A stretch of 64,000 nucleotides of DNA from Eledone cirrhosa (GCA_964016885.1 OZ024740.1:207824001-207888000), one strand, 5' to 3'; positions 11,537-63,889 are shown, numbered from the stretch's first letter. Numbers and translations are program-made. The notes: a model not told the origin generated them from the letters alone.

Positions 11537-11636
11537 ATAATAATAATAATAATAATAAAAATAATAATTATAATAATAATACAAGGACGATTTGTTAAGC
11601 CTTCATTGCGGTTATTGATTGGTTACGCGCGTTTTG

Positions 11637-17050: not shown

Positions 17051-17568
17051 TCCTGTGGAATGTAAAATATGTGGCAGGTTGCATCCGAATAAATATTTAA
17101 GGCTGCGACAATCGCACTTAAAGATTTGCATGACTGATTTAGCTTAGTTATGTTACGCACGCACTCCCCCTCCATATATACGCACATACCACCGCTCCAT
17201 ATACACGTACACCACGTACATGCGCATATACATACATACATACACATACACACAGTCAACGTGTGAATATCCCGGTAACTATCACACCTGTTACCCACTT
17301 ATCAGAATATACTAGTATATCCGGGAAAGTAATATAACCACGGAAACACATATAATGTATGTATATGTATGTGTATGTTTGTATGTATTTATATATGTAT
17401 GTATTTATATATGTATGTATATATATGTATATGTATGTATGCATGTATGTATATATGTATGTACGAATGTATGTATGTGTATATGTATGTATGTATGAAC
17501 GTAAGTATGTATGTATGTATGTATGTATGTATGTATGTATGTATGTATGTATGCATGTATGTATGTAT

Positions 17569-20054
17569 AACTCAAGGATGTGAAATCACGTGTTAGGCGG
17601 AGTCTTTCTCAGATGAAGGGTCAGTGGTGGAGTGAGAAGGCTGATGAGATACAAACTGCGTTAGATTCCAATAACACAAAGCTGTTGTACAGTCTCTTGC
17701 GTGAATTTTATGGACCGTCTTCTTCTCTGGTGACACCGCTTCGCAGCAAGGATGGCAAAGAACTTCATCGTGACTCACAAGGAATTCTACGAAGGTGGCG
17801 AGAACACTTTGATGATCTTTTGAATCAACCGTCTGCCGTCAATGAAGATTTCCTCAATCCCATTCCAGAAAGTCCTGTGAAAGTAGCTCTCGCAGAACCT
17901 CCAACGCTTGTAGAGGTTGCAGTGGCTATCTCGAAGCTGAACAGTGGAAGGTTTCCATGTATGGATGGCATACATGCTGAGCTCCTACAATATGGTGGTG
18001 AGAGACTCCTGCAACATCTTCACTCTTTGTTTGGCAGGATATGGGCTAATGAATCCGTACCTGAGGACTGGAGAGATGCAGTAATGGTGGTATTGTACAA
18101 GGGAAAGGGTAACAGGAATGATTGTGGGAACTACAGAGGTATATCATTGCTTTCTGTCGTAGGGAAAGTTTTATGTAGGGTGCTTCTGGACCGTCTGCTG
18201 ACACACATTGCAGATTGTGTTCTTTCTGAAAGTCAATCTGGTTTTCGTGCTGGACGCGGCACTACTGATATGATCTTCTCAACTAGACAGCTCCAGAAGT
18301 GCATGGAACAAGGTTTGGATCTGTATCAGGTTTTTGTCGATCTAACAAAAGCTTTCGATACTGTTAACAGAAATGCATTATGGAAGGTTCTCCAGAAACT
18401 TGGTTGCCCTGATAAGTTCCTTGCTTTATTTAGGTCTTTCCATGACGACATGAAGGCTTGGATTAATGTCGGAGGTAACATGTCGGAGCCTATCTCAGTA
18501 AAAAATGGAGTGAAACAGGGGGATATTCCAGCACCGACCCTGTTTGCCATATACTTTGCAATGGTTTTCTATATTGCATTCAGGAATTGCGAGCATGGTG
18601 TTTACATCCGATATCGAACCTCAGGCAGCATATTTAACATCAGGCGCTTTGCTGCAAAAACAAAAGTATTTACATCAATCATAAGAGACCTCTTGTATGC
18701 AGATGATTGCGATCTTGTAGCGCACACAGAGTGATATACAGCACATTTTGAATGCATTTTCTGATGCTTGCACTGCCCTAGGATTGACTGTCAGTCTCAA
18801 GAAAACCGTCGTCATGTAGCAACCTGCCCCCCGGTAAGCAGTACAGTGAACCAAATATCTATGTGTATGGTAAACAACTTGGAGTGGTTGATAAGTTTGT
18901 CTACATGGGAAGCACTGTCAATCGATACAGCAACCTTGACAGTGAAATCTCACTTAGGATTAGGAAAGCAAGTGATGCTAGAAAGGCGGAAAGCTAGAAA
19001 GGCGACTCTGGGGTCGGCGAGACATATGCAAGGAGACAAAGGTAAAGGTGTACAAGGCATGTATGCTCTCTTGTCTTCTTTATGCCTGCAGACCTGGGTC
19101 ACATATCGACACCACCTTAAGCAATTGGAGCGTTTCCATCAGATGTGTCTCAGACGGATCCATGGCGTTCACTGGAGGGACCACATCAGTGATGTCGAGA
19201 TTTTGGAAAGCTCTATGTGTGACAGTATAGAAGCTCTTGTGCTTAAGCAACGACTCCGTTGCAGTGGTTACATTGCCAGGATGAAGGATTCTAGAATACT
19301 AAAACTCTTTTATGGAGAGTTAGTTAAAGGAAAACGACCGCCACATAAACCAAAAAAGAGGTATAAGGATTCCTTGAAAGCCTCTCTGAAAGACGCTAAC
19401 ATCTCTGCTGATACATGAGAGAATATTGCTGCTGATGGTAATAAATGGAGAAAGACTGTATATGAGGGAAAAGTTGCCTTTGAGGCATCTCGAATCGCAT
19501 ACGAGAAAGTAAAGCAGGATGTGAGGAAGGGCATTGCTGCTGCACTTCCAGACGGCGAGGGTCCTCCTATGGTGCTGACATGCAGCGTCTGTGCGAGACT
19601 CTGCCTAAGCAAAGCTGGACTCGAAAGTCATATTCGCAGTCATAAAGTGAGACCAGTGGTTGACTACCAGGCTGCTGTTGGAGATGCTACTCATCATGCT
19701 TGCCAAACATGTGGTAGAGAATGTAAATCAGCAGGAGGGCTCAAGCGACATGCAAAAGTACACGAACTCCAGCCACAGCCGACTATTCCCAGTGAATGTT
19801 TTGGTTGCCGACACTGTGCAAGACATTTTAGATCATTGGCTGGGCTAAAAAGCCACATTCGATCGCAGCGCTGTTAGTTGCTATCGTGTGTGTATAGATA
19901 TGTTTATGTGTGTGCGTGTGTGTGTATATATATATATATATTATTATTGTTGTTGTTGTCGTTATTGTTATTGTTGTTATTATTATTATTATTGTTATTA
20001 TTATGTTTTTTTTCTCGTGCAATGGCCATACTCGATAACGAGGGGGCAGCTATC
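17569..20054 (+). mobile_element. RTE-clade LINE, 5'-truncated, RT plus three C-terminal C2H2 zinc fingers
   Basis: ORF 17580-18734 (NYRGISLLS, FVDLTKAFD, GVKQG, LYADD), then a stop and frameshifts. 19521-19877 encodes three CxxC-12-H-type fingers. Flanked by (TATG)n. Confidence 0.92.
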
Positions 20055-20128
20055 ATGTATGTATGTATGTATGTATGTATGTATGTATGTATGCATACAT
20101 GCATGTATGCATGTCTATATATATATAT

Positions 20129-20460
20129 ATATTGGTAAACGGAATAGAAAATGCTGACAAATTGTTCACAGTTGAAAAATGGTTTAATTAGGAATAAAAG
20201 AGTATTAGTGATTGTATGGGTTAGTATTCAGTTGTGGTTTTAAGTTTTTAAGTTTTTCAGATCAGAGCAAACAGCACGGACACTCTATCTCAAAATTATT
20301 TTTGAAAAGCATTTAGAAATGCGCAACCGGTAAGAACTTAAAAACTTAAAACCACAACTGAATACTAACCCATACAATCACTAATACTCTTTTATTCCTA
20401 ATTAAACCATTTTTCAACTGTGAACAATTTGTCAGCATTTTCTATTCCGTTTACCAATAT
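20129..20460. repeat. 126-bp inverted repeat with a degenerate hammerhead in the spacer (Penelope-like inverted pLTR)
   Basis: Arms 20129-20254 and 20335-20460. Spacer 20298-20336 reads TTGAAAA-gcat-ttagaa-atgc-GCAA-CCGGTA. Confidence 0.8.
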
Positions 20461-21079: not shown

Positions 21080-22540
21080 CCCTAATGTACGCAAATTACG
21101 GTAGAAGATTCTTCCTCCATTGTGCTAGAGTTAGAGTAGAAGACACTGCACCAATTTGTTGTCCTTATATTAGAATACATTTGTCAAACATGTCACGGTT
21201 ATAGTTGAAAGCACCTGCCCAATGTGCCGCGGTTATGATCGAGGACATTCTTCAAATGTGACGCAGTTGTGGTGGAAGATAGCTCCCCAATCTGCCGCAG
21301 TTATTATTGAAGACATTCCTCCAGTGTGCCGTCATTTCGGTGGAAGATAGCTCCCCAATGTGCCGCGGTTATGATTGAAGACCTTCCTCCAGTGTGCCGT
21401 CATTATCGTGGAAGATAGCTCCCCAATGTGCCGCGGTTATGATTGAAGACATTCCTCCAGTGTGCCGTCATTATGGTGGAAGATAACTCCCCAATGTGCC
21501 GCGATTATGATTAAAGACATTCCTCCAGTGTGCCGTCATTATGGTGGAAGATAGCTCCCCAATGTGCCGCGGTTATGATTGAAGACATTCCTCCAGTGTG
21601 CCGTCATTATGGTGGAACATAGCTCCCCAATGTGCCGCGGTCATGATTGAAGACCTTCCTCAAGTGTGCCGTCATTATGGTGGAACATAGCTCCCCAATG
21701 TGCCGCGGTTATGATTGAAGACATTCCTCCAGTGTGCCGTCATTATGGTGGAACATAGCTCCCCAATGTGCCGCGGTTACGATTGAAGACATTCCTCCAG
21801 TGTGCCGTCATTATCGTGGAAGATAGCTCCCCAATGTGCCGCGGTTATGATTGAAGACATTCCTCCAGTGTGCCGTCATTTTGGTGGAAGATAGCTCCCC
21901 AATGTGCCGCGGTTATGATTGAAGACCTGCCTCCAGTGTGCCGTCATTATGGTGGTAGATAGCTCCCCAATGTGCCGCGGTTATGATTGAAGATACTCCT
22001 CTAATGTGTCGTCATTATGGTGAAACATAGCTCCCCAATGTGCCGCGGTTATGATTGAAGACATTCCTCCAGTGTGCCGTCATTATGGTGGAAGATAGCT
22101 CCCCAATGTGCCGCGGTTATGATTGAAGACATTCCTCCAGTGTGCCGTCATTATCGTGGAAGATAGCTCCCCAATGTGCCGCGGTTATGATTGAAGATAC
22201 TCCTCTAATGTGTCGTCATTATGGTGAAACATAGCTCCCCAATGTGCCGCGGTTATGATTGAAGACATTCCTCCAGTGTGCCGTCATTTTGGTGGAAGAT
22301 AGCTCCCCAATGTACCGCGGTTATGATTGAAAATACTCCTCTAATGTGTCGTCATTATGGTGGCACATAGCTCCCCGATGTGCCGCAGAGGGCGCTTTAC
22401 GAAGGTGTTGTGTTTATACAGTATTAGAAAAGTTTAACGCACAGCAGCTTTTGTTAAACTGACTTGTCAAATGTTTCCTAATTATGGTAGAAGATATTTC
22501 TCCAATGTGCTACGTCTATATTAGAAAACACTTGCCCAGG
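21080..22540. repeat. 68-bp minisatellite (dimer of two 34-bp monomers), about 16 homogeneous units with degenerate 34-bp flanks
   Basis: ccaatgtgccgcggttatgattgaagacattcct + ccagtgtgccgtcattatggtggaagatagctcc; period 68 (21423 to 21491). Confidence 0.95.
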
Positions 22541-27659: not shown

Positions 27660-28127
27660 AGAACATGCCTGTACAAGAGCATCGTGCTGCCGACAGTGCT
27701 TTATGCGAGCGAGACCTGGAAGAGTACCGCAAAAATAGAGAGACGGCTGAATGCTTTCCACCAGCGGTGCCTGCGAAAGATCCTTCGTGTGTCCTGGCGC
27801 GACCGAGTGCGAAAGGAGGAGATCCTGCGGAGAGCCGAGTCGTCGGCGCTACAGAGAGTGGTCACGGAGCGTCGGTGCCGTCTGGCTGGCCATATTCTGC
27901 GTCTGCCAAATGAACGGCATTCGAAAACAGCGATGAACTGGACTCCGCTTGGCGGTAACCGGAGGCGGGGTTTCCCAAGGATCACCTGGCGAGGAACGTT
28001 CCGGAAGGACCTGATGGCAGCCAACATCACCTGGCACAGTCTCGAAAAAGTTGCCGCTGATAGTGACCGTTGGCGAGTACTTACTACTCGATGCGCCGAA
28101 CGGCACGGAAGAATCTAAGACTAAGAT
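27660..28127 (+). mobile_element. RTE-clade LINE 3' fragment
   Basis: VLPTVLYASETW...FHQRCLRKIL...GHILR...W; (ctaaga)2 tail. Confidence 0.85.
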
Positions 28128-28134
28128 ATATATA

Positions 28135-29054
28135 TAGAGGACGGTGCCCCCTTAGAGGATACTGCTTGACCGATAGGGTTATATATAGATGCACTATTAC
28201 TAGCCACAATAGCGTTAAACATTATATAGGGGCCACCTCCGGCCCGTTCAAAATTAGGTTTCGAACACATCTCCACTCTTTCACAAATAGAAAACTAAGG
28301 CACTCCACCTCGCTCGCGGACTACATCACATCACTAAAGGACTTAAACATTAGCTTCTCCACGCACTGGGAGATTGTCGACAGGGCTGCACCGTACAACT
28401 TCAAGAGGAAATGCGATCTTTGCCTCATGGAGCTCTACCACATCATAACTGCACCCCACGAGCTCATCAACAGCAGAGCTGAAACAGCGATAAGTTGTAC
28501 ACATCGCTTACAAATATCCTTCTTTAGATGGGTTAAGAATGAAGAGTGAAATAGCACACTGGATCTCCCTGCAACAAGTCTTAACACCCCGGCGGGCAGG
28601 CGCAGCAAAATAACACCCAGAAAACAATCCCTGCATACCAAAAATTATCCGGGAAAGACTGCCCTAACACCGGCCAAAGTTACCTCCCTTGACCTGCTGC
28701 AAAATCAAAACAAGATATTTTTGCGAGCAATGAATCTTGATGTGGATTTAACCCCCAAAACTCTTTCCGAACTATATAAGGAACACTTGTGATTGTTTAT
28801 GCCCTTGAGAAGCCCAACTGGGCGAAACGTACGTAGGTGATATTTTAAATAAACATGTTTTAACGGTCTATTCTCCGATTTTTCACTTTCCCACGTGCTT
28901 ACGCTCTGCTAACTCTCTAGCCCACTAAATATTAACACTTCGAATATTTAATACTGCCGGCACTAGTATCGAGCACCTTTGGCATACGCTACTTGGCAAA
29001 TAACTATATGTATCACCTATCCCTCCTTTTTTTCTCTCTTTCTCGATACGTAAA

Positions 29055-35079: not shown

Positions 35080-37428
35080 GAGCCCACACCACTACATCTC
35101 AGCCCACACTACTACATCTCAGCCCACACCACTACATCTCAGCCCACACCACTACATCTCAGCCCACACCACTACATCCCAGCCCACACCACTACATCTC
35201 AGCCCACACCACTACATCTCAGCCCACACCACTACATCTCAGCCCGAGACTACACTACTACATCTCAGCCCACACCACTACATCTCAGTCCACACCACTA
35301 CATCTCAGCCCTCACCACTACATCTCAGCCCACACCACTACATCTCAGCCCACACCACTACATCTCAGCCCTCACCACTACATCCCAGCCCGGGATTACA
35401 CCACTACATCTCAGCCCCCACCACTACATCCCAGTCCACACCATACATCTCAGCCCACACCACTACATCTCAGCCCACACCACTACATCTCAGCCCACAC
35501 CACTACATCTCAGCCCACACCACTACATCTCAGCCCTCACCACTACATCCCAGCCCGGGATTACACCACTACATCTCAGCCCCCACCACTACATCCCAGT
35601 CCACACCACTACATCTCAGCCCTCACCACTACATCCCAGTCCAAACCACTACATCTCAGCCCCCACCACTACATCTCAGCCCACACCACTACATCTCAGC
35701 CCACACCACTACATCTCAGCCCACACCACTACATCTCAGCCCACACCACTACATCTCAGCCCACACCACTACATCTCAGCCCACACCACTACATCTCAGC
35801 CCTCACCACTACATCCCAGCCCGGGATTACACCACTACATCTCAGCCCACACCACTACATCCCAGCCCACACCACTACATCTCAGCCCTCACCACTACAT
35901 CTCAGCCCACACCACTACATCTCAGCCCACACCACTACATCTCAGCCCACACCACTACATCTCAGCCCACACCACTACATCTCAGCCCACACCACTACAT
36001 CTCAGCCCACACCACTACATCCCAGCCCGGGACTACACCACTACATCCCAGCCCACACCACTACATCTCAGCCCACACCACTACATCTCCGCCCTCACCA
36101 CTACATCTCAGCCCTCACCACTACATCTCAGCCCTCACCACTACATCTCAGCCCACACCACTACATCTCCGCCCTCACCACTACATCTCAGCCCTCACCA
36201 CTACATCTCAGCCCTCACCACTACATCTCAGCCCACACCACTACATCTCAGCCCACACCACTACATCTCAGCCCACACCACTACATCTCAGCCCCCACCA
36301 CTACATCTCAGCCCACACCACTACATCTCAGCCCACACCACTACATCTCCGCCCTCACCACTACATCTCAGCCCTCACCACTACATCTCAGCCCTCACCA
36401 CTACATCTCAGCCCACACCACTACATCTCCGCCCTCACCACTACATCTCAGCCCTCACCACTACATCTCAGCCCTCACCACTACATCTCAGCCCACACCA
36501 CTACATCTCAGCCCACACCACTACATCTCAACCCGGGATTACACCACTGCATCTCAGCCCCCACCACTACATCTCAGCCCACTACAGCCCACACCACTAC
36601 AGCCCACACCACTACATCTCAGCCCACACCACTACATCTCAGCCCCCACCACTACATCCCAGCCCGGGACTACACCATTACATCTCAGCCCACACCACTA
36701 CATCCCAGCCCGGGACTACACCACTACATCTCAGCCCACACCACTAGATCCCAGCCCACACCATACATCTCAGCCCTCACCACTACATCTCAGCCCTCAC
36801 CACTACATCCCAGCCCGGGACTACACCACTACATCTCAGCCCACACCACTACATCTCAGCCCTCACCACTACATCTCAGCCCACACCACTACAACTCAGC
36901 CCACACCACTACATCTCAGCCCACACCACTACATCTCAGCCCACACCACTACATCTCAGCCCACACCACTACATCTCAGCCCACACCACTACATCTCAGC
37001 CCACACCACTACATCCCAGCCTACACCACTACATCTCAGCCCTCACCACTACATCTCAGCCCACACCACTACATCTCAGCCCACACCACTAGATCCCAGC
37101 CCACACCATATACCTCAGCCCTCACCACTACATCTCAGCCCTCACCACTACACCTCAGCCCACACCACTACATCTCAGCCCACACCACTACATCCCAGCC
37201 CACACCACTACACCTCAGCCCACACCACTACATCTCAGCCCACACCACTACATCTCAGCCCACACCACTACATCTCAGCCCACACCACTACATCCCAGCC
37301 CACACTACTACATCGCAGCCCACACCACTACATCTCAGTCCACACCATACATCTCAGCCCACACCACTACATCTCAGCCCACACCACTACATCGCAGCCC
37401 ACACCACTACATCTCAGCCCACACCATA
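35080..37428. repeat. 20-bp minisatellite agcccacaccactacatctc (about 115 copies, with 25-bp cccggga(c/t)ta variants)
   Basis: Directly visible, 2.35 kb. Confidence 0.97.
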
Positions 37429-43636: not shown

Positions 43637-44184
43637 TAATATGGGACAGGGAGAAGAAAACATGCACAGTAGTGGAAATTAGCTGCTTAACAGATGCCAA
43701 TATAATAGCAAAGATTAGTGAAAAGGAGAATATCTATGCAGAACTGATGAGAAACCTGCAGATACTCCAGCCTGATTACACCTTCAAATTTATGCCTGTG
43801 ATTATCGGGGCACTGGGATATGTTAGTAACTGCCTCAATACAAATCTTGAGAAGCTAGGCTTCACAGGAACAGAAAGAACACAACTAGTTAGGAAATTAC
43901 AAGTACAATCCATTAATGGAACAGTAAAAATATGTAAAACATTCTAAAAATGTTGCATCTAATAACTGCATATACACATATACAGATGCAAAGCATACAC
44001 ACATGCACACATGCAACTCAAAACATCCACATCCACACATACAATAACATCCATGTGTACACATACAGACATAATCTACCTAGTTGATGTTGTGTAAATT
44101 CCAATGAGAGAGTCTTGTGTCTATGTTAGAAACCGACTCTCTCTCTATTGGTAAAAGATTTGTGAAATTATAAAACCAGAAGAA
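43637..44184 (+). mobile_element. R4/Dong family B, 5'-truncated copy (RLE end plus 3'UTR)
   Basis: IWDREKK..VVEISC; closely similar to 51915-52449; ends agaa|catacata. Confidence 0.9.
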
Positions 44185-45234
44185 CATACATACATACATA
44201 CTCACGCTTATAACATATCTATAGCACCATGTATATCGTGTTATCTATTAACTGATGATTTGCTTTTTAAGAACATATGTCGACATTAAAAACATATTTA
44301 TATAATAATTAACGTGTTTTATATATATGTAAGTATCTATGTAAGTATGTATGTATGTATGTAAGTATGTATGTATGTAGGTAGGTATGTGTGTGTATGT
44401 AGCTATGTGTGAGTGTATATATGTATGCATGTGTGTATGTATGTATATGTATGTGCGCATGTATGCATACATTTATGTATGTACGTTTGTATGTATGTAT
44501 ATTTCTATTTATGTGTATATATATATGTACATATGTATATTTATATATGTACATGCATGTCAATAAGTATATATGTATGTGCACACGCACATATCCATCT
44601 GCATTTCTATATATGTAAATTTGTGTTTGTATACATCATCATCATTTTATATATAATTTTTTTGTACGTCCACTTAAAAAAAAAACATATATATGTGTAC
44701 GAATGTGTGCGTAGTATGTATCTGCATGCATGCGTGTATATGTATATACGTGTGTATGTACATATATATGTGTGTGTTGACGGTTGTGTGTGGGTGTATG
44801 TCTTTGAGCGGACACATCATCCCATGTTATTAACTGCTAAAACATTTCCAGATTTCTGACGTCATTCCTACTTTTCTTTCTACCATTTTGTTTATCTGGG
44901 ACAGACGTATGTATGTGTGTATGTATCTATGTGTGCATGTGTGGGTGTATGTATGATTGTGTGCATGTGTATGCGTGTGTCTGTGTGTGTATGTTTGTGT
45001 ACATGTGTATGTGTGTATATTTTTCTGTGCATATATGTGTGTGTTTAGGGTGCCATCCCTAGACCCTTGCTTCTCGTCAACTCCTCTCTTGGCCCCTACC
45101 AGGTTACAACCACCACCATCCAAGAACACCTACCTTTCTAGATCTCCACTACTTCTCTAAACATCTTTTCTATGCCTCTATCAATGTACAACACTCAACT
45201 CCTTATCTCAATATAGTCCCTTCTTTTCTACTAC

Positions 45235-45540
45235 ACCCTACCTCTCTATAACTTCCTACATTTCCAGACCCCTATTCCATATAACCTCTTACCTCTCTAG
45301 AGACCTTACTTCTCTAGAGATCTTACCTCTCTAAAACTTCCTACATTTCCAGACCCCTATTCCATATAACCCCTTACCTCTCTAGAGATCTTACCTCTCT
45401 AAAACTTCCTACATTTCCAGACCCCTATTCCATATAACCCCTTACCTCTCTAGAGATCTTACCTCTCTAAAACTTCCTACATTTCCAGACCCCTACTTCC
45501 ATATAACCCCTTACCTCTATACAACACTTACCATCCTATA
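45235..45540. repeat. 68-bp tandem repeat made of four 17-bp subunits
   Basis: cttacctctctaaaact/tcctacatttccagacc/cctattccatataaccc/cttacctctctagagat; period 68 (45322 to 45390). Confidence 0.88.
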
Positions 45541-45714
45541 CCTCACCTCTGTATAAACCCTATTACTTTATTTATGTCATTGAACAAATCTGTTCTCCCT
45601 ATTCCTTCCTTATGTGATGTTTACAAAACAAGCTTTAGAGTAGCAATTAGATTTACAAAATTGAGCTAAGGGAAATAGCTCAAATAGGAAAATGGTATGA
45701 ATTTAGATAAATCG

Positions 45715-46215
45715 GGTAGACGGTGATAAACAGAAGGACCTACATAAATAATTTTCCGGTCGCGTCCTCTTCGCACCAGTCGCCGTTGAGACCTCAGGCA
45801 TACTCGGATCCTGTACTGCCGAGCTCCGCCGCAAGATCGGAACGTCAGCAGCCCATCTGAGGAAGAGCTCCGCGTGGTGGGGTGGGTGTTTGGAGCGGGT
45901 GTCACTGGCCATTGCCCGCGGAAATACTTTTGCGGTCTTGTTCGTGGGGCACAGCCCCACACCACTGCACCCTAGGCCCAGAGTCAATCACTCTCTCCCT
46001 TTCCCTCTCCTTTTTTTCTGTGACCCTTGAGGCGTTGCTTTTCCCCTCCTTTTCCTCTTATTTATGTCTTTCATATTCCTTTCCTCTACTTTCCCATACA
46101 GACAGATCTGCCCTTCCTTATCCCTTCCCCATTTTCTCATTACTTAATTTGGCTTTTATCTTTCTTTCTCATATTTATGTATCTTTTGAAAATAAACTTA
46201 TTTCTATTCATTAAA
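45715..46215 (+). mobile_element. CRE-clade RLE retrotransposon 3' fragment
   Basis: The frame from 45770 reads FAPVAVETSGILG...ERVSLAIARGNTFAVL, matching the CRE C-terminal F.P.A.ET.G..G / QRLS.A..RGNA motif. AATAAA lies near the end. Confidence 0.7.
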
Positions 46216-46439
46216 AATTTGCCTTTCATCCTTACGGGGTCGATAAAATAAAGTACCAGTAATGTACTGGGTAATTGCTGGCCTTGTGCCTAAAGTAGAA
46301 ACAATTAAAAATTATCTGTTAATGGAAATTGATAGTCACTCTCAAATAAAAAGGAACATAATTTCAATAAAATATAAATATATTTCGCAGAATATTATTA
46401 ATCTTATCTTTGATAGCAGATAAAATATCAGCTATGACC

Positions 46440-47035
46440 AAGATTACTTAATTAGACTTAGAACCTCCAGCGTTTTGAGATACATGAGGCAGTGAAAGTG
46501 GTCCAATGCCCACGGTCAGTTGAATCTATCAAGATATCCTACGTCTTGAGACAGACACGTCAGTCAGCCAATGTGCTCCAATGACCACGGTTACTTGCAT
46601 CTATCAGTACATCGTTCCAATGTTTGTTGACGGGTTTCAGGTCTTTGAGGATTGTCGCCCCCGGTTCATCTTGGGACATCCTCTTCGCCTCTTTCCACAA
46701 GGGAACCTATGCGGGACCTGATTAGCATGTCTCTCACTTGGGAGTCATGTGACATATCCCAACCAGCCAAGTTGACACTTGTACATGATGTTAGACACAC
46801 GTTGTTAGGAGGTTCATTGATGGACTTCTTTGTTGGTGATGAAGTCATCCTACTTGATACCAAGGATTTTCCGAAGAAATTTGATGTCAAAAGTATGTAA
46901 TTGGTTCTCCTGGCTGGTCTTCACACTCCACCTTTCGCACCCATACAAGAGTGTTGAACGCACGAAGCACATCATTGTTGTAAAACCTCATCTTGGTACC
47001 AAGCGAAAGTTTTTTTGCTTCTCCAGATCTTGTTG
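46440..47035 (-). mobile_element. Old RTE-like LINE 3' remnant
   Basis: Minus-strand degenerate LLYGCE.W, GHV.R and RPGxxPQR..W motifs; (ctaa)-type tail. Confidence 0.5.
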
Positions 47036-47252
47036 AGTTGCATAAAGGAGAAAGTTTCAGTGGTTTTATACCGTGCCAGCAGAGTGGAGATATATCAACG
47101 ACAGATACGAATATGTTTGGTCGGTAGTATTTTTACTTAATTTTCTCTGCTTCTATGATATCACAAACACAAACATACATAGTATGAAAGCGTAAATGAG
47201 CTTGACAGTATGCGTACATGTCCGAGTGAAACTCTGAGACCGTAAGTATGCA

Positions 47253-47322
<70 letters not shown>

Positions 47323-47583
47323 AACAACACATACCTAACGAACTTTTACGAAGGGCTGAGGGGATAAAGTTAATATAGAGTGGCGTCTCATGTACGAATA
47401 TGCTATAAAATAGAGTGAAACCCTCAGAAAAGGAAAAGTAGTCCCCGGCCACTACAAGGAAATGAAGCTGGTATTTCCCAGATGGCAACTTCTTTTTCCG
47501 TCTCTAAGGGCATTCACCCTATTTTACCAGCTATTTTATAGCATATCAGTGCATGAGCACACTTCTCTTTATGTATATACGTA

Positions 47584-47627
<44 letters not shown>

Positions 47628-47715
47628 TATATATATATATGTGTGTAGCTCTCTCTCTCTCTTTCTCTGTCTCTCTAAGTATATATATGTGTATATATGT
47701 CTGTGTGTATACATA

Positions 47716-47784
<69 letters not shown>

Positions 47785-47935
47785 GCATACTTGAGTATAA
47801 ATATACGCACCCATATATGTATATGTGAGTGCGCATGTGTTTATATGTAGTTGTTCATGTTTGCGTTCTGTGTGTTTGTGTGTGTTTTCTCATCTATGTC
47901 TGCCTGTATATATTTATATGTATACATATATACTC

Positions 47936-47991
<56 letters not shown>

Positions 47992-48281
47992 ATATAGTTA
48001 CATGTACAGATATTTATATACATCACATACGCACATACATCACATGCATACATACATATATATATACATACATGCATGTATGGATCCATACATATATACA
48101 TATATACATACATATATACATGCATGCATACATACATACATACACGCATACATACATAAATACACGCATACATACATACATAAATACACGCATACATACA
48201 TACATACATACATACATACATACATACATACATACATACATACATACATACATACATACATACATACATACATACATACAT

Positions 48282-49549
48282 ACAATACTTATGCTGTGCC
48301 AATTCTAACGCCAACATTTGGCCTACTGAACTGGTCATTGCAAGAACTAAGTGAGATGGATGTTAGAACTCGAAAACTTCTCAGTGTTACTGGGAACTTT
48401 AACATCAATGGTGATGTGGATAGGCTATACTTCTCACGCAAGGAAGGTGGCCGGGGTCTAAAATCAATATTAACAACATATGAGACCCGGATAGTAACAC
48501 TGAAACAACACCTTCAACAGAGGAAAAAGGTTGGCAACCATCTTGCCCAGGTTTATGACCATGAAAAAAAAAATATCATTAGAATAGCGACTGATCTGGA
48601 GGAGAGATATGGAATAAAGCCTGATATAAATCTCTTACCCAGAGAAATCGGAAGATCCTATTCAATGTTCAAACAAGATGAAAAAATTGACCAATTTACA
48701 GAAAAAGTTGTGCATGGATACTTGAGGCGTAAAACACAGACCATAGAGGGGATAAACCACTCAAAAAGCCTGGCATGGAGTTCCGACAAGTTTATGACAT
48801 CACACCTTGAGGGATATCTCTATGCAATACAGGAACAAGAACTCCCTACCAAATATCTGCTGCACAAAAGAGGAGGGCCAGCAGCTGACAATAAATGTAG
48901 GCTATGTAAAACAAAGATCGAGGATGTAAGCCACATTGTTGCCAGCTGCGAAAGAATGTCATCTCGCTACTACCTCCCCATGAGACACGATGGGATAGCT
49001 AGAACCATCTGGAACGCACTTCGGAAAACAAAATTAACAACAAACGAGGAAGAATATATTGAGACAGATGGCACTAAGGAATACTGGTGGAACCTGAAAA
49101 TAAAAACTGCCACCAAATTAAAGCACAACCGGCCTGATATTGTAGTTTGGGACCACACATTGAAAACGTGTTCTGTTGTGGAGATCAGCTGCCCACTTGA
49201 TGTAAACGTTGTCAGAAAAATACAGGAGAAGGAGGACATCTACGGACCATTGATGAGGAGTTTACAAATCCAGTATCCAAAATACACCTTTAGCTTCATA
49301 CCCGTCATTATTGGTGCTACGGGTTATATACCAACCCGCTTGGACCAAAGTATGATTGAACTTGGATTTGCGGACAAAAAGCGCAGCTCCCTAATTCATA
49401 GTCTACAAATAGCTGCGATAGCTGGCACCTTCAAAATTTGCAAAACATTCTTGCGATTCAAAGGATGACAATTTCTTTTCTTTTACAACCTTGCCACCAG
49501 GAAGGTGGCCGGTCAAAAAAATATACTCGAAATTAAGAGAAAGAGAAAA
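48282..49549 (+). mobile_element. R4/Dong family A, 5'-truncated copy
   Basis: Nearly identical to 56461-57728 (about 8 substitutions by eye); (TACA)n on both sides. Confidence 0.95.
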
Positions 49550-49569
49550 CATACATAGATACATACATA

Positions 49570-52449
49570 GAGTGAAAAATAAAATAGAGACGATGTTTGG
49601 TAACAGTAGAACCAGAACTCTCCAATATAAGCTGATCACCCTCAAACAAGAATTGAGAGCTGTTAGCGAAAAACGCCGATACCTGAAGAAGGTAGAGGAG
49701 AGAAAGGTGCTTAATAAAAGATTCAGACGAAACCAAACATCAGTCTATAGAGATATGAAGGGCAAAATAATAAGTGTCACTGAGGCCACTGAGGTCACTG
49801 GAGCAAAATATGGGATGAAAAGAAGAATTTCAACCAAGATGCAGTGTGGCTAAGAGAAACCCGAAAGAACTATTGCTCCTACACTACAACAAAAAACATA
49901 CGAAATAAGTGAGAGTACCCTTGAGACTGTGATAGGAAAACTCCAAGATAAGAAAACACCAGGAAGAAACATGATTGTCGGCTACTGGTACACAAAACTG
50001 ATATTCTATCGGAGGTATCTTACTGACCTCTACCAACAAGTTCTTAAGGGAGATACACTTATACCAGAATGGTTGACATTAGCACAAACATTACTGGTCC
50101 CCAAGAACAAAGACACCCACTTGGCAAAAAACTACCGACCCATTGCATGCCAGAACCTGATGTATAAGATGTATACAGCCTGCCTGAACCTATTCCTCCA
50201 AGATCACTGTGAAAATAATAACATCATCACAGATGAACAAGCAGCTGGAAAGAAAGGGATTTGGGGATGTGCTGAAGAAATCCTAATCAACAAAACTGCG
50301 ATGTCGGACGTGCGACAACTTAGGAGGAATAAGACTACAGTCTGGCTGGACTACAGGAAAGCTTTCGATTCTGTTCCCCATTCTTGGATGATAGACGCCC
50401 TCCAACTCTCTAAAGTCCCAGACATTATTGTCAGACCCATAGAGAAGCTGTCTTCTTCTTGGGCTACTAACCTAAGGTTAACGACAGAGAGGGAGGACTC
50501 TATTTTCACTGATAAAATAAAATATTGCAGGGGTATATTTCAGGGGGACAGTCTCTCTGTGATATTATTCCTCTTGTCATTAAACCCCTTGTCCTTTCTG
50601 CTCAAGAAATGTGAGGGAAACATCATTGGCTCACAGGAGGACAGAAATACGAACCTAACCCATAATTTCTTTGTGGACAATCTGAAACTCTATGCCAAGA
50701 ACATGGATGGGATGAAGAAAAATCTTGACCTGGTTACAACGTTCTCAAAGGATATAGGAATGGAGTTTGGCCAAGATAAATGCTCATACAAGACTGTAAA
50801 GTGGGGAAAAACAACAACCCAATCTAGCAACATTGTCATCAATGGCCTGACTGTTTCACCGATATCTGATGAGGACTGCTACAGATACCTGGGGATAGAT
50901 GAGAACATATCCTATAATGGTACCTGTAATAAAGAACGCGTAACCAGGGAATACTATACCCGATTAAGAAAGATCTGCTCATCGGAACTCTCTGCGCAAA
51001 ACAAAACAGTGGCTCACAATGTGTTTGCTGTGCCTGTCCTAACACCAACGTTTGGAATACTCAATTGGACGATAGACGAAATCCGAGCCGTTGATGTTGG
51101 AACTCGAAAAATACTGAACAACACCGCAAACTTCCACATCAACAGTGACATAGACCGCCTTTACTTGAAACGTAAGCAAGGAGGCAGAGGCCTAACATAA
51201 GTTCGGACAACATTTCAATGTCGCATCATATCCCTTCGACAACATCTACGAACCTCGAAGCGTAGGAGCCTGTTTCTCGAGCAAGTCTATCTGCATGAAA
51301 CAGATAAGATCATGAGAGTTGGTAAGGAACTCCTTGTGAGATATTCCCTGTGTGATAATCAAAAACTCACACCCAGGGATGTCGCTCAGCAGTATCGCAG
51401 TGAATCCATGCATGAAAAACTGCATGCCTATCAGCAAAAAATCATGCCTGGATATGTTGCCAAGAAGCTCCAGAGTGAGAGTAATATAGATAAGGAAAGT
51501 AGTCTCTCTTGGACCAACAACCGCTATATAGGCTCCCACATTGAAGGATACGCTTTTGCAATCCAGGAACAGAGGATTAGCACGAAATACCTGATTCACA
51601 AAAGAGATAGGGATGCAGGCAAAACACCTAGATGTGATAACAAGTGCAGACTCTGCAGAACTAACATCGAGGATATCACTCATGTCATCAGTAGCTGTCC
51701 AAAGATGTCATCGCGGTACTATCTACCTATGAGGCATGATGTAGTGGCCAAAACACTGTAAAATGCAGTTCGTAAAAAGGATAGCCCCAATAATAAACAC
51801 ATTAAAAGCTACAGCAATGTGGAAGACATCCATGTACATAATATGACAGAGTACTGGTGGAATGTTCCAGTAAAAACCCCAATAAAATGCAGGCATAACA
51901 GACCAGATATTATGATATGGGACAGGGAGAAGAAAGCATACACAGTAGTGGAAATTAGCTGCCCAGCAGATGCCAATATAATATCAAAGATTAGTGAAAA
52001 GGAGAACATTTATGCAGAACTGATGAGAAATCTGCAGATACTCCACCCTGATTACACCTTCAGATTTATGCCTGTGATTATTAGGGCACTGGGATATGTT
52101 AGTAACTGCCTCAATACAAATCTTGAGAAGCTAGGCTTCACAGGAACAGAAAGAACACAACTAGTTAGGAAATTACAAGTACAATCCATTAATGGAACAG
52201 TAAAAATATGTAAAACATTCTAAAAATGTTGCATCTAATAACATGTACAGATGCAAAGCATATACACATGCACACATACAACTCAAAACATCCACATCCA
52301 CGCATACAATAATATCCATATCTACACATGCATACATACATACCTACCTAGTTGATGTGTAAATTCCAATGAGAGAGTCTTGTGTCTATGTTAGAAACCG
52401 ACTCTCTGTCTATCGGGAAAAGATTTGTGAAATTATAAAACCAGAAGAA
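49570..52449 (+). pseudogene. R4/Dong family B, 5'-truncated, inactivated (RT, CCHC, RLE)
   Basis: WLDYRKAFDSVPH, QGDSLS, FVDN (mutated catalytic DD), CRLC..H..C, RHD, RPDI; in-frame stops. Confidence 0.93.
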
Positions 52450-52537
52450 CATACATACATACATACATACATACATAATACATACATACATACATACATA
52501 CATACATACATACATACATACATACAGACAGACAGAC

Positions 52538-53095
52538 AGACACGATGGGATAGCTAGAACTATCTGGAACGCACTTCGGAAAACAAAATTAAAAACAAAC
52601 GAGGAAGAATATATTGAGACAGATGGCACTAAGGAATACTGGTGGAACCTGAAAATAAAAACTGCCACCAAATTAAAGCACAACCGGCCTGATATTGTTG
52701 TTTGGGACCACACATTGAAAACGTGTTCTGTTGTGGAGATCAGCTGCCCGTTTACATCAAGTTGATGTAAACGTTGTCAGAAATATACAGGAGGAGGACA
52801 TCTACGGACCTTTGATGAGGAGTTTACAAATCCAGTATCAAAGATACACCTTTAGCTTCATACCCACGGGTTATATACCAACCCGTTTGGACCAAAGTAT
52901 GACTGAACTTGGATTAGTGGACAAAGAGCGCAACTCCCTAATTCATAGTCTACAAATGGCTGCGATAGCTGGCACCTTCATAATTTTCAAAACATTCTTG
53001 CGATTCAAAGGATGACAATTTCTTTTCTTGTACAACCTTGCCACCAGGAAGGTGGCCGGTCAAAAAAAATACTCGAAATTAAGAGAAAGAGATAA
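52538..53095 (+). mobile_element. R4/Dong family A, short older copy
   Basis: Homologous to about 57162-57728 with indels. Confidence 0.92.
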
Positions 53096-53577
53096 CATAC
53101 ATACATAGATACATACATACACGCATGCATACATACATAAATACATACACGCATACATACATACATACATACATACATACACGCATACATACATACATAC
53201 ATACATACATACATACATACATACATACACGCATACATACATACATACATACATACATACATACATACACGCATACATACATACACGCATACATACATAC
53301 ATACATACATACACGCATACATACATACATATATACATACATACATACATACACGCATACATACATACATACATACATACATACATACATACATACATAC
53401 GTACATACATGCATGCATGCATGCATACATACATACATACATACATACATACATACATACATACATACACGCATACATACATACACGCATACATACATAC
53501 ATACATACACGCATACATACATACATACATATATACATACATACATACATACATACATACACGCATACATACATACA

Positions 53578-53611
<34 letters not shown>

Positions 53612-53698
53612 CACACATACATACATACATACATACATACATACATACATACATACATACATACATACATACATACATACATACATACATTCATACAT
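53096..53698. repeat. 600-bp (CATA)n tract with CACG variants
   Basis: Directly visible. Confidence 0.97.
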
Positions 53699-56600
53699 AA
53701 AATGGCGACCGTTGTGGTCAGTGTCCGATAATCGGACGTGTGTAATTACGGCTTACATGAAGGCAACATACCATATATTGGAAAAAGTTGAGCTACATTA
53801 CGCGGTAAGATTACATACAATAATTCTACATAAATGTTTGAACTGTAAGTATGTTGTAAAACACCTATTTATATGAACGATACATACACTTATGATATAT
53901 GAACGATACATACACTTTAACATATAAATGCAACGTTGTTATATTACATTTATAAAGAAATATTACATTTATATAAAACACAGTTGTAGAATTAAAAAAC
54001 TAACTGAAAAGAAATATTACTCAAGCTGTGAATAACTTTAAATTTGATTCTGACAGAACTTTGTCGTAACTTTTAAAGAAGATCATCGACTATTTTGAAA
54101 AATAAATACGAAATATTAGTGAATAGACGAACTCATCATGGCAAAAAGTACAAGTCTCCTTCGACCAAATCGCAATTACAACCGTTGTACACAGTGGACC
54201 TACGAGTTTAACAATGTATTATATGAAGCATACAAACAATCTGAACCCCAAAAGTTCGGTTTTATGCAAAGGCTAAAAACTTTATGGAACTCCAAACACC
54301 CAGAATTAGACTTTTCTCCAAAGCATTTAAATGAACAGGCAAAACGTATCATTAGATGTAAATTGATACATCTAACAGAATCGAGTGATACTACAAATAC
54401 AGCCCTTGTAGACAACCACCCCACCTCCACTGACAGACAAAGAGAATGGCCGGCTAAATCTAACAGTGAACAGCTCACCAACAATTTTGCTGAAATTCAT
54501 CCCACTTCCACTGAAGAACAGCGAGAAAGGTCAGCTGACTCTAGTAGTAATTGTCACCACATCAACAACGAGGCTGAAATTCATGACTCTACTGAACAAA
54601 CAGAGCACCAAAAACTTGTGGGCTCCCTACAAGTGATATGGAATGATATGTTTCAAGAGATACACAGCCTTAATGTGAGTGACAGACCATACAACACTAG
54701 AGTCAGTAAAGAACCCACTAAATTGGAATTGGAAGCGGTGAACGAAATAGCTGGCAATTATCTGAAGGCTATACGATCTAAAGGTGTAGAAACGACATTT
54801 GAAACGCTTAATGTTTTGTTATATGTTTCAGCTGTCACATTGCTAGCATATAACACACATCTAAAACCACGCAATCAAGATACAAACAGAAAGCCTGAAC
54901 CAGCGTGGATGCGAAATTTAAAAACCAAAATTTTGTCCCTGAGACGAAGTATCTCACACATCGCAGTCGTTATGAAATGCAACATAGAGAGCAACTTCAC
55001 ACAACACCAGGAAGACCTAAAGAAAAAGTTAGAGAGAAGATTTGGAGATACAAAATTTAAAACTTTGAACTCCAAATTACACCAGTTGAAACAACAACTC
55101 ACAGCTACAACAGAAAGACTAAAATATAAGTCAACAGCACATAAACGACAAGTGCTAAATAGATTGTTTGCCAGAGATCCTAAATCAGTTTATCGCAGCT
55201 TCGGTGGCAAAAGCTCAATCTCTGTAAATGACACCCCTTCAAAAGAACAGGTTGAGAGCTACTGGAGATCTGTATGGGAAACGGATGACGGATTCAACAG
55301 ACAAGCTAATTGGCTAAAAGAACTGGAACAGGACTACTGCCAACATGTCCAGACAAAACAATATGACATAGATGGGTCAATACTGGAAACAGCTCTACAG
55401 AAAATGTCGAATAGGAAATCGCCAGGCCCAGACCTCATTACAGGATACTGGTTGAAGAATTTCACTTTCTATCGGCAAGATCTCATACGGCTGTTTACAG
55501 AAACCATTAAGGGCACACAAGAACTGCCCAGATGGTTATCAACTGCCTCTACTCTCCTCATTCCCAAAAATAGCCAAACCACCCTTGCTAAAAATTACCG
55601 CCCAATTGCCTGCCAAAACATCATGTATAAATTATATACTGGGTGCCTTAACCTGTTCTTACAGGATCACTGTGCTACCAACAACATCATAACACCTGAG
55701 CAAGCTGGTGGAAATAGGGAGGTGTGGGGTTGCATAGATCACCTACTAACTAACAAAATGATTCAGAAAAAAACAACAAAGAATCGCAGAAACATGACTG
55801 TCGTGTGGCTGGACTATCAAAAAGCATTTGATAGTGTACCTCATGGGTGGATTGTTAAGGCTTTACAGTTAGCTAAAGTCCCACAACCATTGGTAGCTGC
55901 TGTTGAACGCCTGACCAAGAACTGGTACACCAGTTTGATCCTTAGAGGTGAGAAGGAGCAGGTTAGGACTGATAAGATACATTACCAGAAGGGCATCTTT
56001 CAGGGTGATAGCTTGTCGGTGCTACTCTTCGTTCTCTCACTGAATCCACTATCTTACCTACTCAGGAAACAAGGTCGACAAAGAAGTGGGACCAGAAGTA
56101 TCTCCCATCTTTTCTTTGTTGATGACCTGAAGTTGTATGGGCCAAATATCAATGACATCAAGAAACAATTGGACCTCATTACACAATTTTCAACCGACAT
56201 CAAAATGAAATTTGGTGAGTCCAAGTGTGCATATTTGGCAGTAAAACGTGGAAGAGCTGTGCCCTCCTCTAGAAATCTAGAGATGAACGGCCTGACAATA
56301 CAACCTCTGCAGTCAGGTGACAACTACAGATATCTTGGACAGGATGAGAATGTCAGATATGATGGACCCATAAATAAGGAGAAAACCAGAACTGAATACC
56401 TCAGAAGAGTAAAGAAAATATGGTCATCAGAACTGTCAGCATACAACAAATACATTGCCCACAATACTTATGCTGTGCCAATTCTAACGCCAACATTTGG
56501 CCTACTGAACTGGTCATTGCAAGAACTAAGTGAGATGGATGTTAGAACTCGAAAACTTCTCAGTGTTACTGGGAACTTTAACATCAATGGTGATGTGGAT

Positions 56601-57728
56601 AGGCTATACTTCTCACGCAAGGAAGGTGGCCGGGGTCTAAAATCAATATTAACAACATATGAGACCCGGATAGTGACACTGAAGCAACACCTTCAACAGA
56701 GGAAAAAGGTTGGCAACCATCTTGCCCAGGTTTATGACCATGAAAAAAGAAATATCATTAGAATAGCGACTGATCTGGAGGAGAGATATGGAATAAAGCC
56801 CGATATAAATCTCTCACCCAGAGAAATCGGAAGATCCTATTCAATGTTCAAACAAGATGAAAAAATTGACCAATTTACAGAAAAAGTTGTGCATGGATAC
56901 TTGAGGCGTAAAACACAGACCATAGAGGGGATAAACCACTCAAAAAGCCTGGCATGGAGTTCCGACAAGTTTATGACATCACACCTTGAGGGATATCTCT
57001 ATGCAATACAGGAACAAGAACTCCCTACCAAATATCTGCTGCACAAAAGAGGAGGGCCAGCAGCTGACAATAAATGTAGGCTATGTAAAACAAAGATCGA
57101 GGATGTAAGCCACATTGTTGCCAGCTGCGAAAGAATGTCATCTCGCTACTACCTCCCCATGAGACACGATGGGATAGCTAGAACCATCTGGAACGCACTT
57201 CGGAAAACAAAATTAACAACAAACGAGGAAGAATATATTGAGACAGATGGCACTAAGGAATACTGGTGGAACCTGAAAATAAAAACTGCCACCAGATTAA
57301 AGCACAACCGGCCTGATATTGTAGTTTGGGACCACACATTGAAAACGTGTTCTGTTGTGGAGATCAGCTGCCCACTTGATGTAAACGTTGTCAGAAAAAT
57401 ACAGGAGAAGGAGGACATCTACGGACCATTGATGAGGAGTTTACAAATCCAGTATCCAAAATACACCTTTAGCTTCATACCCGTCATTATTGGTGCTACG
57501 GGTTATATACCAACCCGCTTGGACCAAAGTATGATTGAACTTGGATTTGCGGACAAAAAGCGCAGCTCCCTAATTCATAGTCTACAAATAGCTGCGATAG
57601 CTGGCACCTTCAAAATTTGCAAAACATTCTTGCGATTCAAGGGATGACAATTTCTTTTCTTTTACAACCTTGCCACCAGGAAGGTGGCCGGTCAAAAAAA
57701 TATACTCAAAATTAAGAGAAAGAGAAAA
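53699..57728 (+). mobile_element. Apparently full-length R4/Dong-clade non-LTR retrotransposon (family A)
   Basis: About 440-bp 5'UTR, intact ORF, about 80-bp 3'UTR with a gccacc/ggtggc hairpin, (CATA)n on both sides. Confidence 0.93.
54138..57647 (+). CDS. 1169-aa R4/Dong polyprotein: Myb-like N-terminus, reverse transcriptase, CCHC knuckle, restriction-like endonuclease
   Basis: QWTYEFN...LW..KHP (Myb-like); NYRPIAC, LDYQKAFDSVPH, GIFQGDSLS, FVDD; CRLCKTKIEDVSHIVASC; RHD..RPDIVV..VEISCP..K..Y. Confidence 0.96.
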   Translation: MAKSTSLLRPNRNYNRCTQWTYEFNNVLYEAYKQSEPQKFGFMQRLKTLWNSKHPELDFSPKHLNEQAKRIIRCKLIHLTESSDTTNTALVDNHPTSTDRQREWPAKSNSEQLTNNFAEIHPTSTEEQRERSADSSSNCHHINNEAEIHDSTEQTEHQKLVGSLQVIWNDMFQEIHSLNVSDRPYNTRVSKEPTKLELEAVNEIAGNYLKAIRSKGVETTFETLNVLLYVSAVTLLAYNTHLKPRNQDTNRKPEPAWMRNLKTKILSLRRSISHIAVVMKCNIESNFTQHQEDLKKKLERRFGDTKFKTLNSKLHQLKQQLTATTERLKYKSTAHKRQVLNRLFARDPKSVYRSFGGKSSISVNDTPSKEQVESYWRSVWETDDGFNRQANWLKELEQDYCQHVQTKQYDIDGSILETALQKMSNRKSPGPDLITGYWLKNFTFYRQDLIRLFTETIKGTQELPRWLSTASTLLIPKNSQTTLAKNYRPIACQNIMYKLYTGCLNLFLQDHCATNNIITPEQAGGNREVWGCIDHLLTNKMIQKKTTKNRRNMTVVWLDYQKAFDSVPHGWIVKALQLAKVPQPLVAAVERLTKNWYTSLILRGEKEQVRTDKIHYQKGIFQGDSLSVLLFVLSLNPLSYLLRKQGRQRSGTRSISHLFFVDDLKLYGPNINDIKKQLDLITQFSTDIKMKFGESKCAYLAVKRGRAVPSSRNLEMNGLTIQPLQSGDNYRYLGQDENVRYDGPINKEKTRTEYLRRVKKIWSSELSAYNKYIAHNTYAVPILTPTFGLLNWSLQELSEMDVRTRKLLSVTGNFNINGDVDRLYFSRKEGGRGLKSILTTYETRIVTLKQHLQQRKKVGNHLAQVYDHEKRNIIRIATDLEERYGIKPDINLSPREIGRSYSMFKQDEKIDQFTEKVVHGYLRRKTQTIEGINHSKSLAWSSDKFMTSHLEGYLYAIQEQELPTKYLLHKRGGPAADNKCRLCKTKIEDVSHIVASCERMSSRYYLPMRHDGIARTIWNALRKTKLTTNEEEYIETDGTKEYWWNLKIKTATRLKHNRPDIVVWDHTLKTCSVVEISCPLDVNVVRKIQEKEDIYGPLMRSLQIQYPKYTFSFIPVIIGATGYIPTRLDQSMIELGFADKKRSSLIHSLQIAAIAGTFKICKTFLRFKG

Positions 57729-58009
57729 CATACATACATACATAATATATACTCATAAGTGTCTTGTAGAAAGCTAGATAATCTAAAGACGGCAGAAGGC
57801 CTGCCAGAATAGATTATCTTCATCATCACACTGCCTGCACTTCCTGTCTACACACGCATGTGTAGAGTAAAGAGCCAGTTGGCGGAGGACACCCCCCCCC
57901 CCACTCTATGGTAGACGGTGATTCCCTATGCTGTCACACATTCCAGATTTTAACGATGTACGATCACTTCTTCTCTACACCTGCTTCTCTTTATGTTCTG
58001 TCATCCCCT

Positions 58010-63366: not shown

Positions 63367-63889
63367 GATCACTCTCGAATGCTACTGGTAACATGTAACC
63401 CAGTACAACCTGTCTCATGGTCGGGTGGTCGGCGACTAAAGCGGCAACCCCACCAAGCTTGCTTGGTAAGGAGGATGATATTTGGACACCCTGCGAGATG
63501 AAATACAAGACTCGGCAAAGGGCGAAGGAACTCATCAGAGTCAACGGCCATTCAAATAGTACCTTTTTTGTTCTTTTCACCAAGGAGTGAAAGACCCTCA
63601 GTTGTTATTACAACACCTTTCTAAGAGAGGTAAACTCTGACAAAAACCTGCGGCTTCGGAAACATCCGATGATGTTGACCAGTTCCCTATTTCGAGTAGT
63701 GTTTTCGATGTTCAGAGTGTAAAATTGGTCGAGTGCAAGTCCTTTCCCCACTTAAAAAACCTTCAAAGCACAGGTATTGCTTGTTCGGGATATGTCACAG
63801 GTTCGTGTGGCTGGCTGTAGTCTAAAGGTCCACCATTTTCTGTAATCTGACAAGCAATTGCAATACTCTTAGAAGAGTTTGCAGTCACC
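63367..63889 (+). mobile_element. Short non-autonomous RTE derivative
   Basis: The last 44 nt match the RTE 3' end at 33127-33170 (39/44); structured GC-richer 5' part; (TA)n on both sides. Confidence 0.65.

Follow-up and report, generated by a model that had tools for sequence, protein, structure and literature searches.

R4/Dong-type retrotransposons with a probable (CATA)n target form polarised arrays in Eledone cirrhosa

In the sources cited here, R4/Dong retrotransposons combine a reverse transcriptase (RT) with a restriction-like (REL) endonuclease, a Myb-like N-terminus and microsatellite targets (PMC7998251), and Dong itself is described on (TAA)n (PMC7998251, PMC3812793), although one of these sources places it among elements with an APE endonuclease (PMC3812793), in conflict with the other (PMC7998251). 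Microsatellite targeting is also described for the Waldo elements of the R1 clade (WaldoAg1, WaldoAg2 and the earwig Waldo), whose target is ACAY, and its molecular basis is described there as not well understood (PMC3812793). R2, by comparison, is reported to carry N-terminal zinc fingers together with a Myb domain and to use a unique site in 28S ribosomal DNA (PMC13580325). Among cephalopods, five Dong-R4 families with 1,129 recently active insertions have been reported in O. vulgaris (PMC13282606), and a full-length Dong open reading frame (ORF), with no sign of recent Dong activity, in O. bimaculoides (PMC9115989). Here we analyse a 64,000-nucleotide stretch of the Eledone cirrhosa assembly (GCA_964016885.1, OZ024740.1:207824001-207888000; hereafter the window), which contains five copies of two related families, A and B, embedded in (CATA)n tracts.

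Judged from sequence comparisons, it is probable that A and B are R4/Dong-type non-long terminal repeat retrotransposons that insert into (CATA)n in one orientation and phase, likely through a protein that recognises and cuts the repeat. The enzyme-level specificity for (CATA)n, a possible expansion of the microsatellite, such as the sequence-only reading had suggested, and the current activity of these elements are what we infer from the evidence presented below.

Genome-wide flanks and junctions

Exact ends of family A were counted over the whole 3.0-Gb assembly, where 3,522 of 4,312 exact 3' ends were directly followed by CATA; exact 5' ends numbered 301. Both junctions were read in 86 copies other than those of the window, and a 5' flank was scored as CATA if at least 16 of the 20 bases preceding the junction agreed with (CATA)n. 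Seventy-five of the 86 flanks passed this test (38/41 full-length A copies, 27/32 truncated A copies and 10/13 truncated B copies), and the reversed repeat (TATG) preceded none of them, against a background of 1.5% per strand (20-mers at 16/20 or better among 133,007 positions in 40 arbitrary 10-kb stretches). An earlier reading of the window made from sequence only had proposed (CATA)n specificity with a single orientation and phase; the genome-wide 3' ends and the 5' flanks of truncated copies agree with that proposal, and 5' flanks that are random across the genome were not found. The truncated copies carry the argument for targeting, since they cannot bring a 5' tract with them.

Inspection by eye attributed most failures of the test to internal deletions, to a brief duplication of the start of the element next to a tract, or to degeneration of the tract. 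On the 3' side, the first four bases were CATA in 67 of 73 A copies and 10 of 12 B copies. Of the 301 exact 5' ends, no more than 72 conformed to a strict leader pattern. Among the first 40 failures of this pattern on contig C1 (not counting two that had been retrieved before), the 16/20 test was passed by 35, and the remaining five showed short or phase-slipped CATA tracts, so the low yield of the strict pattern reflects variation in the leader and not absence of the tract. In family B, 13 of 29 loci reached the full-length 5' end, each directly after a tract.

The interruptions of a tract are also informative. Rare 5-mers common to both flanks of one copy gave a Jaccard index of 0.152, compared with 0.081 ± 0.012 for shuffled pairs (p = 2e-4; based on the 63 of 85 copies whose flanks held sufficient interruptions), and at one locus (L019) a single variant unit stands on both sides of the copy. 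Because the two flanks of a copy share locus-specific interruptions, the tract probably existed beforehand and was split by the insertion. Contigs from public runs showed a strong depth gradient of 3' over 5' sequence, and CATA loose ends before truncation points.

Truncated A copies gave 24 clean junctions, of which 18 are compatible with breakage directly after CATA and microhomology of 1 nt or more (p = 1.4e-4, relative to the A content of the element). The 3' junction has the same phase, with a one-base ambiguity, so that insertion is blunt modulo 4, and in two CTTA-flanked relatives (see below) the 3' flank begins at C with no A before it, which favours the phase A^C. A target-site duplication of 6-7 bp, suggested by two copies, was rejected because 3' variants such as CATT and CATATA were not mirrored at the 5' end.

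The last few bases upstream of full-length copies (the leader) follow subfamily: CATATAT was present in 14 of the 21 members of one subfamily but in none of 21 other copies, CATAC in 9 of 9 copies with another variant of the 5' untranslated region (UTR), and B copies at different loci had odd leaders in common. A target origin of the leader was rejected on these grounds. Since these bases are inherited, full-length transcripts likely start inside the upstream tract, resembling R2, in which upstream target sequence in the RNA (an rRNA leader) helps 5' joining. At several loci (L039/L098, L053/L112, L018, L133 and L135) the element's first 10-30 bases are shortly duplicated at the 5' junction, which suggests repeated priming during 5' joining. 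The start of the full-length A copy in the window (53699-53710) is what we take to be a YY1-site-like word and the B 5' end at L206 presumably an initiator-like TCAGT; both could possibly be internal promoters launching transcription inside the tract. No ribozyme was found by Rfam between 53600 and 54200 (E up to 5), the one strong match being a microRNA model on the CATA tract and the others having E above 1.

The array in the window and the encoded protein

The five copies, three of family A and two of family B, were confirmed at the places where the sequence-only reading had put them, all on the plus strand and with a common end phase, each terminating ...AA|CATACATA (Table 1). Four of them had been described as back to back and directly preceded by TACA repeats. 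They are indeed contiguous over 48.3-57.7 kb, with intervening tracts of 20, about 90 and 603 bp, but the tract before the A copy at 52538 is (CATA)n ending in (CAGA)3, not pure TACA. The fifth copy, B at 43637, sits about 4.1 kb upstream of the others and the tract before it is degenerate. The ORF of 1169 amino acids (aa) claimed for the full-length A copy (53699-57728) is open throughout, while the B copy at 49570 contains three in-frame stops and the A copy at 52538 one stop and a frame change. The A and B proteins are 48% identical, divergence within a family is 0.6-9% among the window copies, and all five 5' breakpoints are different. The GATA-interrupted 20-bp CATA pattern at 49550-49569 recurs at about 53100-53119, bracketing B 49570 and A 52538; it may represent a target duplication, a local duplication or chance.

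The protein has an R4/Dong-type layout (a predicted Myb-like N-terminus, RT, CCHC knuckle and restriction-like endonuclease), which supports the R4/Dong type claimed for it. Pfam matched RVT_1 and, weakly, zf-RVT only, and detected no APE domain. The PD..E..K motif of the endonuclease is conserved among homologues, and in the window's full-length copy the RT, knuckle and endonuclease motifs are unchanged. An AlphaFold model built from 38 aligned sequences (pLDDT 85) has a predicted fold nearest to R2 proteins (R2Bm, R2Tg and R2Pm; E 1e-33, TM about 0.58), followed by LINE-1 ORF2p. Residues about 17-80 form three predicted helices (pLDDT 86.5), whose structural matches among 48,161 chains were mostly Myb/SANT domains (TRF1, Zeste, NgTRF, ISWI and Cdc5, Z 5.3-5.9), the best being TRF1 (Z 5.9, rmsd 3.8, 64 aligned). 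No zinc-finger pattern occurs in aa 1-80, and a search of the ESM Atlas returned unnamed RT clusters only.

Table 1. Features of the array and of the full-length family A copy (window positions).
Feature	Position	Strand	Remark
Family B, short 5'-truncated copy (endonuclease end and 3' UTR)	about 43637..44184	+	91.4% to B 49570; outside the tight array; followed by (CATA)4
(CATA)n tract, left end of the array	48040..48281	+	CACG/TAAA interruptions
Family A, 5'-truncated copy	48282..49549	+	aa 776-1169 open; older-subfamily backbone with alleles common only to the full-length neighbour
CATA spacer, 20 bp	49550..49569	+	one GATA unit
Family B, 5'-truncated copy	49570..52449	+	truncated by about 1.2 kb
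(CATA)n spacer	52450..52537	+	(CAGA)3 at end
Family A, old decayed 3' fragment	52538..53095	+	91%, indels
(CATA)n tract, 603 bp	53096..53698	+	CACG interruptions
5' UTR of full-length A copy	53699..54137	+	first bases (leader) subfamily-inherited; no Rfam ribozyme match
Single ORF of full-length A copy	54138..57647	+	1169 aa
Three-helix N-terminal domain, predicted Myb/SANT-like, aa about 17-80, candidate target reader	54186..54377	+	best Z 5.9, weak
Reverse transcriptase core, Pfam RVT_1, aa 475-726	55560..56315	+	QGD at 622, FVDD at 660
CCHC zinc knuckle, aa 980-997	57075..57128	+
Restriction-like endonuclease	57285..57635	+	P1059-D1060, E1075, K1091; alignment read by eye
Patch of four alleles common only to the copy at 48282	57460..57590	+	likely conversion tract or assembly mix
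3' UTR, 81 bp, ending AAAA	57648..57744	+	then (CATA)4 and unique DNA

Other elements occupy similar repeats. A non-coding element of 607 bp (element C; L054 807-1413), with remnants at window 63380-63782, has the same 3' end as the RTE copy of the window and a 5' part that presumably resembles RTE; no tRNA gene was found in it. Element C had matches in 51 of 115 Dong loci and in 7 of the 40 arbitrary 10-kb stretches. Its flanks are ATGT or TA repeats, and of its 76 hits around Dong loci, 69 were on the opposite strand. The RTE copy itself (17355-20132, ORF pieces at 17571-19877) is 5'-truncated and stands between (ATGT)n tracts with a polarity opposite to that of the Dong copies. Elsewhere the window holds a broken L1/Tx1-like LINE on the minus strand with an APE-like start and an RT (8496-11622), a GIY-YIG-like reading frame on the plus strand, seen by eye and possibly a Penelope-type remnant (28067-28549), and minisatellites at 35081-37426 (about 115 repeats of a 20-bp unit) and 21218-22386 (17 repeats of a 68-bp unit).

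Age of family A and rival explanations

The mean pairwise distance among 42 full-length A copies was 24 substitutions in 4 kb, the smallest being 1, and an ORF of at least 1160 aa was kept in 23 of 41 other full-length copies sampled. On the sequences of copies other than the window pair, family A is young and recently active, as had been proposed. The proposal had leaned on the truncated copy at 48282 differing from its full-length neighbour by only about 8 substitutions; the count stands, at exactly 8 in 1268 bp, but as evidence of recency it does not, since the two neighbours share alleles found nowhere else and the distance is therefore no clock. They have five alleles in common that are absent from 54 other copies, from each of which A 48282 differs at 13 or more positions, and a 45-mer over two of the shared alleles has exactly two occurrences in the 3-Gb genome, both at this pair. 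Alleles at 56858/56859 are common in other copies among the public-run contigs and hence not private; as 56859 is one of the five, four are truly rare. The pair nevertheless differ at subfamily-diagnostic sites, for example 57295. The full-length copy lies 18 substitutions from the family majority (6-47 in 41 others), and over the 2.76 kb not overlapped by A 48282 its private substitutions number only 4. The simplest reading of the allele sharing, and the one to which we incline, is that the older truncated copy was the donor in patchy gene conversion; mixing during assembly is a lesser possibility, and a local daughter copy is rather unlikely.

In the mechanism that we propose, the Myb-like N-terminus and the restriction-like endonuclease would bind a tract and nick its TATG strand, and the freed 3' end would prime reverse transcription at the 3' AAAA of the RNA. 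The CATA strand would be cut in the same phase modulo 4, after CATA and with a 1-nt ambiguity, and the cDNA end would be joined through 1-2 nt of microhomology or, in full-length copies, via the few repeat bases at the RNA 5' end. Each copy still has CATA on either side, so that two usable tracts are left by every insertion. Arrays could therefore grow through a series of independent insertions, and gene conversion would later have partly homogenised the two near-identical A neighbours.

Several observations weigh against targeting by such a protein. CATA is missing next to 18% of A 3' ends (old copies included), one B copy (L078) has a non-CATA 5' flank without a tract, and the purity of the flanks is uncorrelated between the two sides (rho -0.07). 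The copies read at both junctions were mostly the best-scoring and hence young, and 9 of 33 truncated A junctions were set aside for duplicated, deleted or extra bases. Neither an empty site nor an insertion polymorphism was seen, in contigs that failed to span the junction. With Z below 8, the structural match to Myb is weak, a Myb domain was not found by Pfam, PDB profile search or Foldseek (E up to 0.001), and the RT tree described below was built without any named Dong or R4 sequence.

It might be argued that CATA is only a tail, encoded or produced by RT slippage, and that insertion is unspecific in a repeat-rich genome. CATA-like sequence is common, at the background rate given above, and the 5' leaders of full-length copies are partly inherited, but 37 of the 45 5'-truncated copies, in which a leader is not inheritable, lie downstream of a tract that runs in the same orientation, and in no copy is it reversed. 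As local interruptions are moreover common to both flanks, we regard a mere tail as highly improbable. Targeting might instead be real but set mainly by RNA-DNA pairing, with CATA from 3' read-through of the RNA annealing to a loosely nicked TATG strand and the protein having little preference. Repeat bases are apparently present at the 5' end of the RNA, which makes 3' read-through plausible, and the short RTE-type element, unrelated to A and B, uses these tracts on the opposite strand (69 versus 7 hits), showing that several elements are drawn to them. The 3' flank, however, departs from CATA at its first bases in 6 of 73 young A copies, which like the variant unit on both sides at L019 fits a target-derived flank better than an RNA-derived tail, and the type of target repeat follows the protein tree; pairing as the main determinant thus appears unlikely.

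An origin of the array by tandem or segmental duplication of one block would be in keeping with the closeness of A 48282 to its full-length neighbour, with the restriction of their shared haplotype to two places in the genome, and with the GATA-interrupted pattern on both sides of B 49570 and A 52538. Yet the different breakpoints, the presence of two families and the divergence within them exclude a simple block duplication, and the subfamily-diagnostic differences between the two A neighbours also stand against it. Head-to-tail neighbours are common at unrelated loci as well: neighbouring A or B ends lay on the same strand in 40 cases and on opposite strands in 1 (34 of 115 loci; a few of the 115 overlap). 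A tandem segmental duplication with shared breakpoints was not found, and duplication has very little to recommend it here; the growth of polarised arrays by independent insertions, as the sequence-only reading had it, accords with these counts.

Relatives and comparison with known systems

The nearest named protein is from Argonauta hians (62%), and it is sister to A in a FastTree of 59 RT regions, from which 37 loci without a readable flank were left out. Flanks could be read for 31 of 80 metagenome loci with relatives, and most end in (AAT)n. Two relatives have (CTTA)n, L220 at both ends and L222 at the 3' end, with 3' UTRs of about 1 kb versus 81 bp in A. Another two, L283 and L285, have flanks that read as TAA-like, and a CATA label for them was rejected. 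A, B, L220 and L222 fall in one long-branched clade (support 100; 31 rows, with flanks unread for 27), all 16 TAA-labelled rows fall outside it, and A and B are far from the RTE and L1-type outgroups. A tetranucleotide lineage would thus rest, with thin support, on four labelled rows. By eye, two (TAA)n-flanked relatives (L239 1-120 and L227 75-120) start with tRNA-like sequence directly after the repeat.

We suggest, with considerable reserve, that these elements may form a deep, undescribed Dong-type branch that exchanged three-base for four-base repeats, (CATA)n in the present families and (CTTA)n in relatives, and reads them via one small Myb-like domain without zinc fingers. Its target would be self-renewing, since (ATGT)n tails are added on the opposite strand by RTE elements and their short partner, and each Dong insertion leaves two new tracts. 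If this were true, the microsatellite-reading code would become directly testable, given the dozens of intact copies that are almost identical and a sister lineage whose target differs by one base. The family itself supplies intact young proteins with a restriction-like endonuclease, a clear four-base target and natural variants (TAA, CTTA and CATA) usable for swaps, and extends the R2-type enzymes under study for gene insertion by a compact scaffold that lacks zinc fingers. The locus further points to a way in which polarised trains of retrotransposons arise in cephalopod genomes rich in repeats. It is also a warning about age estimates, which are distorted where adjacent copies become homogenised.

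As described in the literature, Dong elements (Bombyx Dong, DongAg, the snail DongBg and the ostracod Dong1/2) resemble A and B in having one ORF, a Myb/SANT-like N-terminus without a zinc finger, an RT, a CCHC motif and a restriction-like endonuclease, and in inserting into microsatellites. They differ in their target, (TAA)n as opposed to (CATA)n, and A and B stand in a separate clade with (CTTA)n-flanked relatives. No target sequence is named for the octopus Dong-R4 families in the accessible text of PMC13282606 and PMC9115989. More generally, a (CATA)n target for an R4-clade element was not found in the portions of the literature at hand (including PMC4640811, PMC8967140, PMC10294476 and PMC13708176), though key surveys, Repbase, Dfam or the Fell 2025 supplement may record one. 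R2 offers the closest solved structures and shares target-primed reverse transcription with a restriction-like endonuclease; unlike R2, the A protein is without an N-terminal zinc-finger pattern, the copies have microsatellite flanks, and the 5' UTR gives no ribozyme match. The ACAY target described for Waldo includes (ACAT)n, which is the same repeat as the (CATA)n of A and B. Waldo, however, belongs to the R1 clade and has an APE endonuclease, whereas the A protein lacks an APE domain and has a restriction-like domain at its C-terminus, so a shared target would be convergent. (CATA)n itself is therefore not new to retrotransposons, but it is well supported as a new target for R4/Dong-type elements within the known class of microsatellite-specific retrotransposons.

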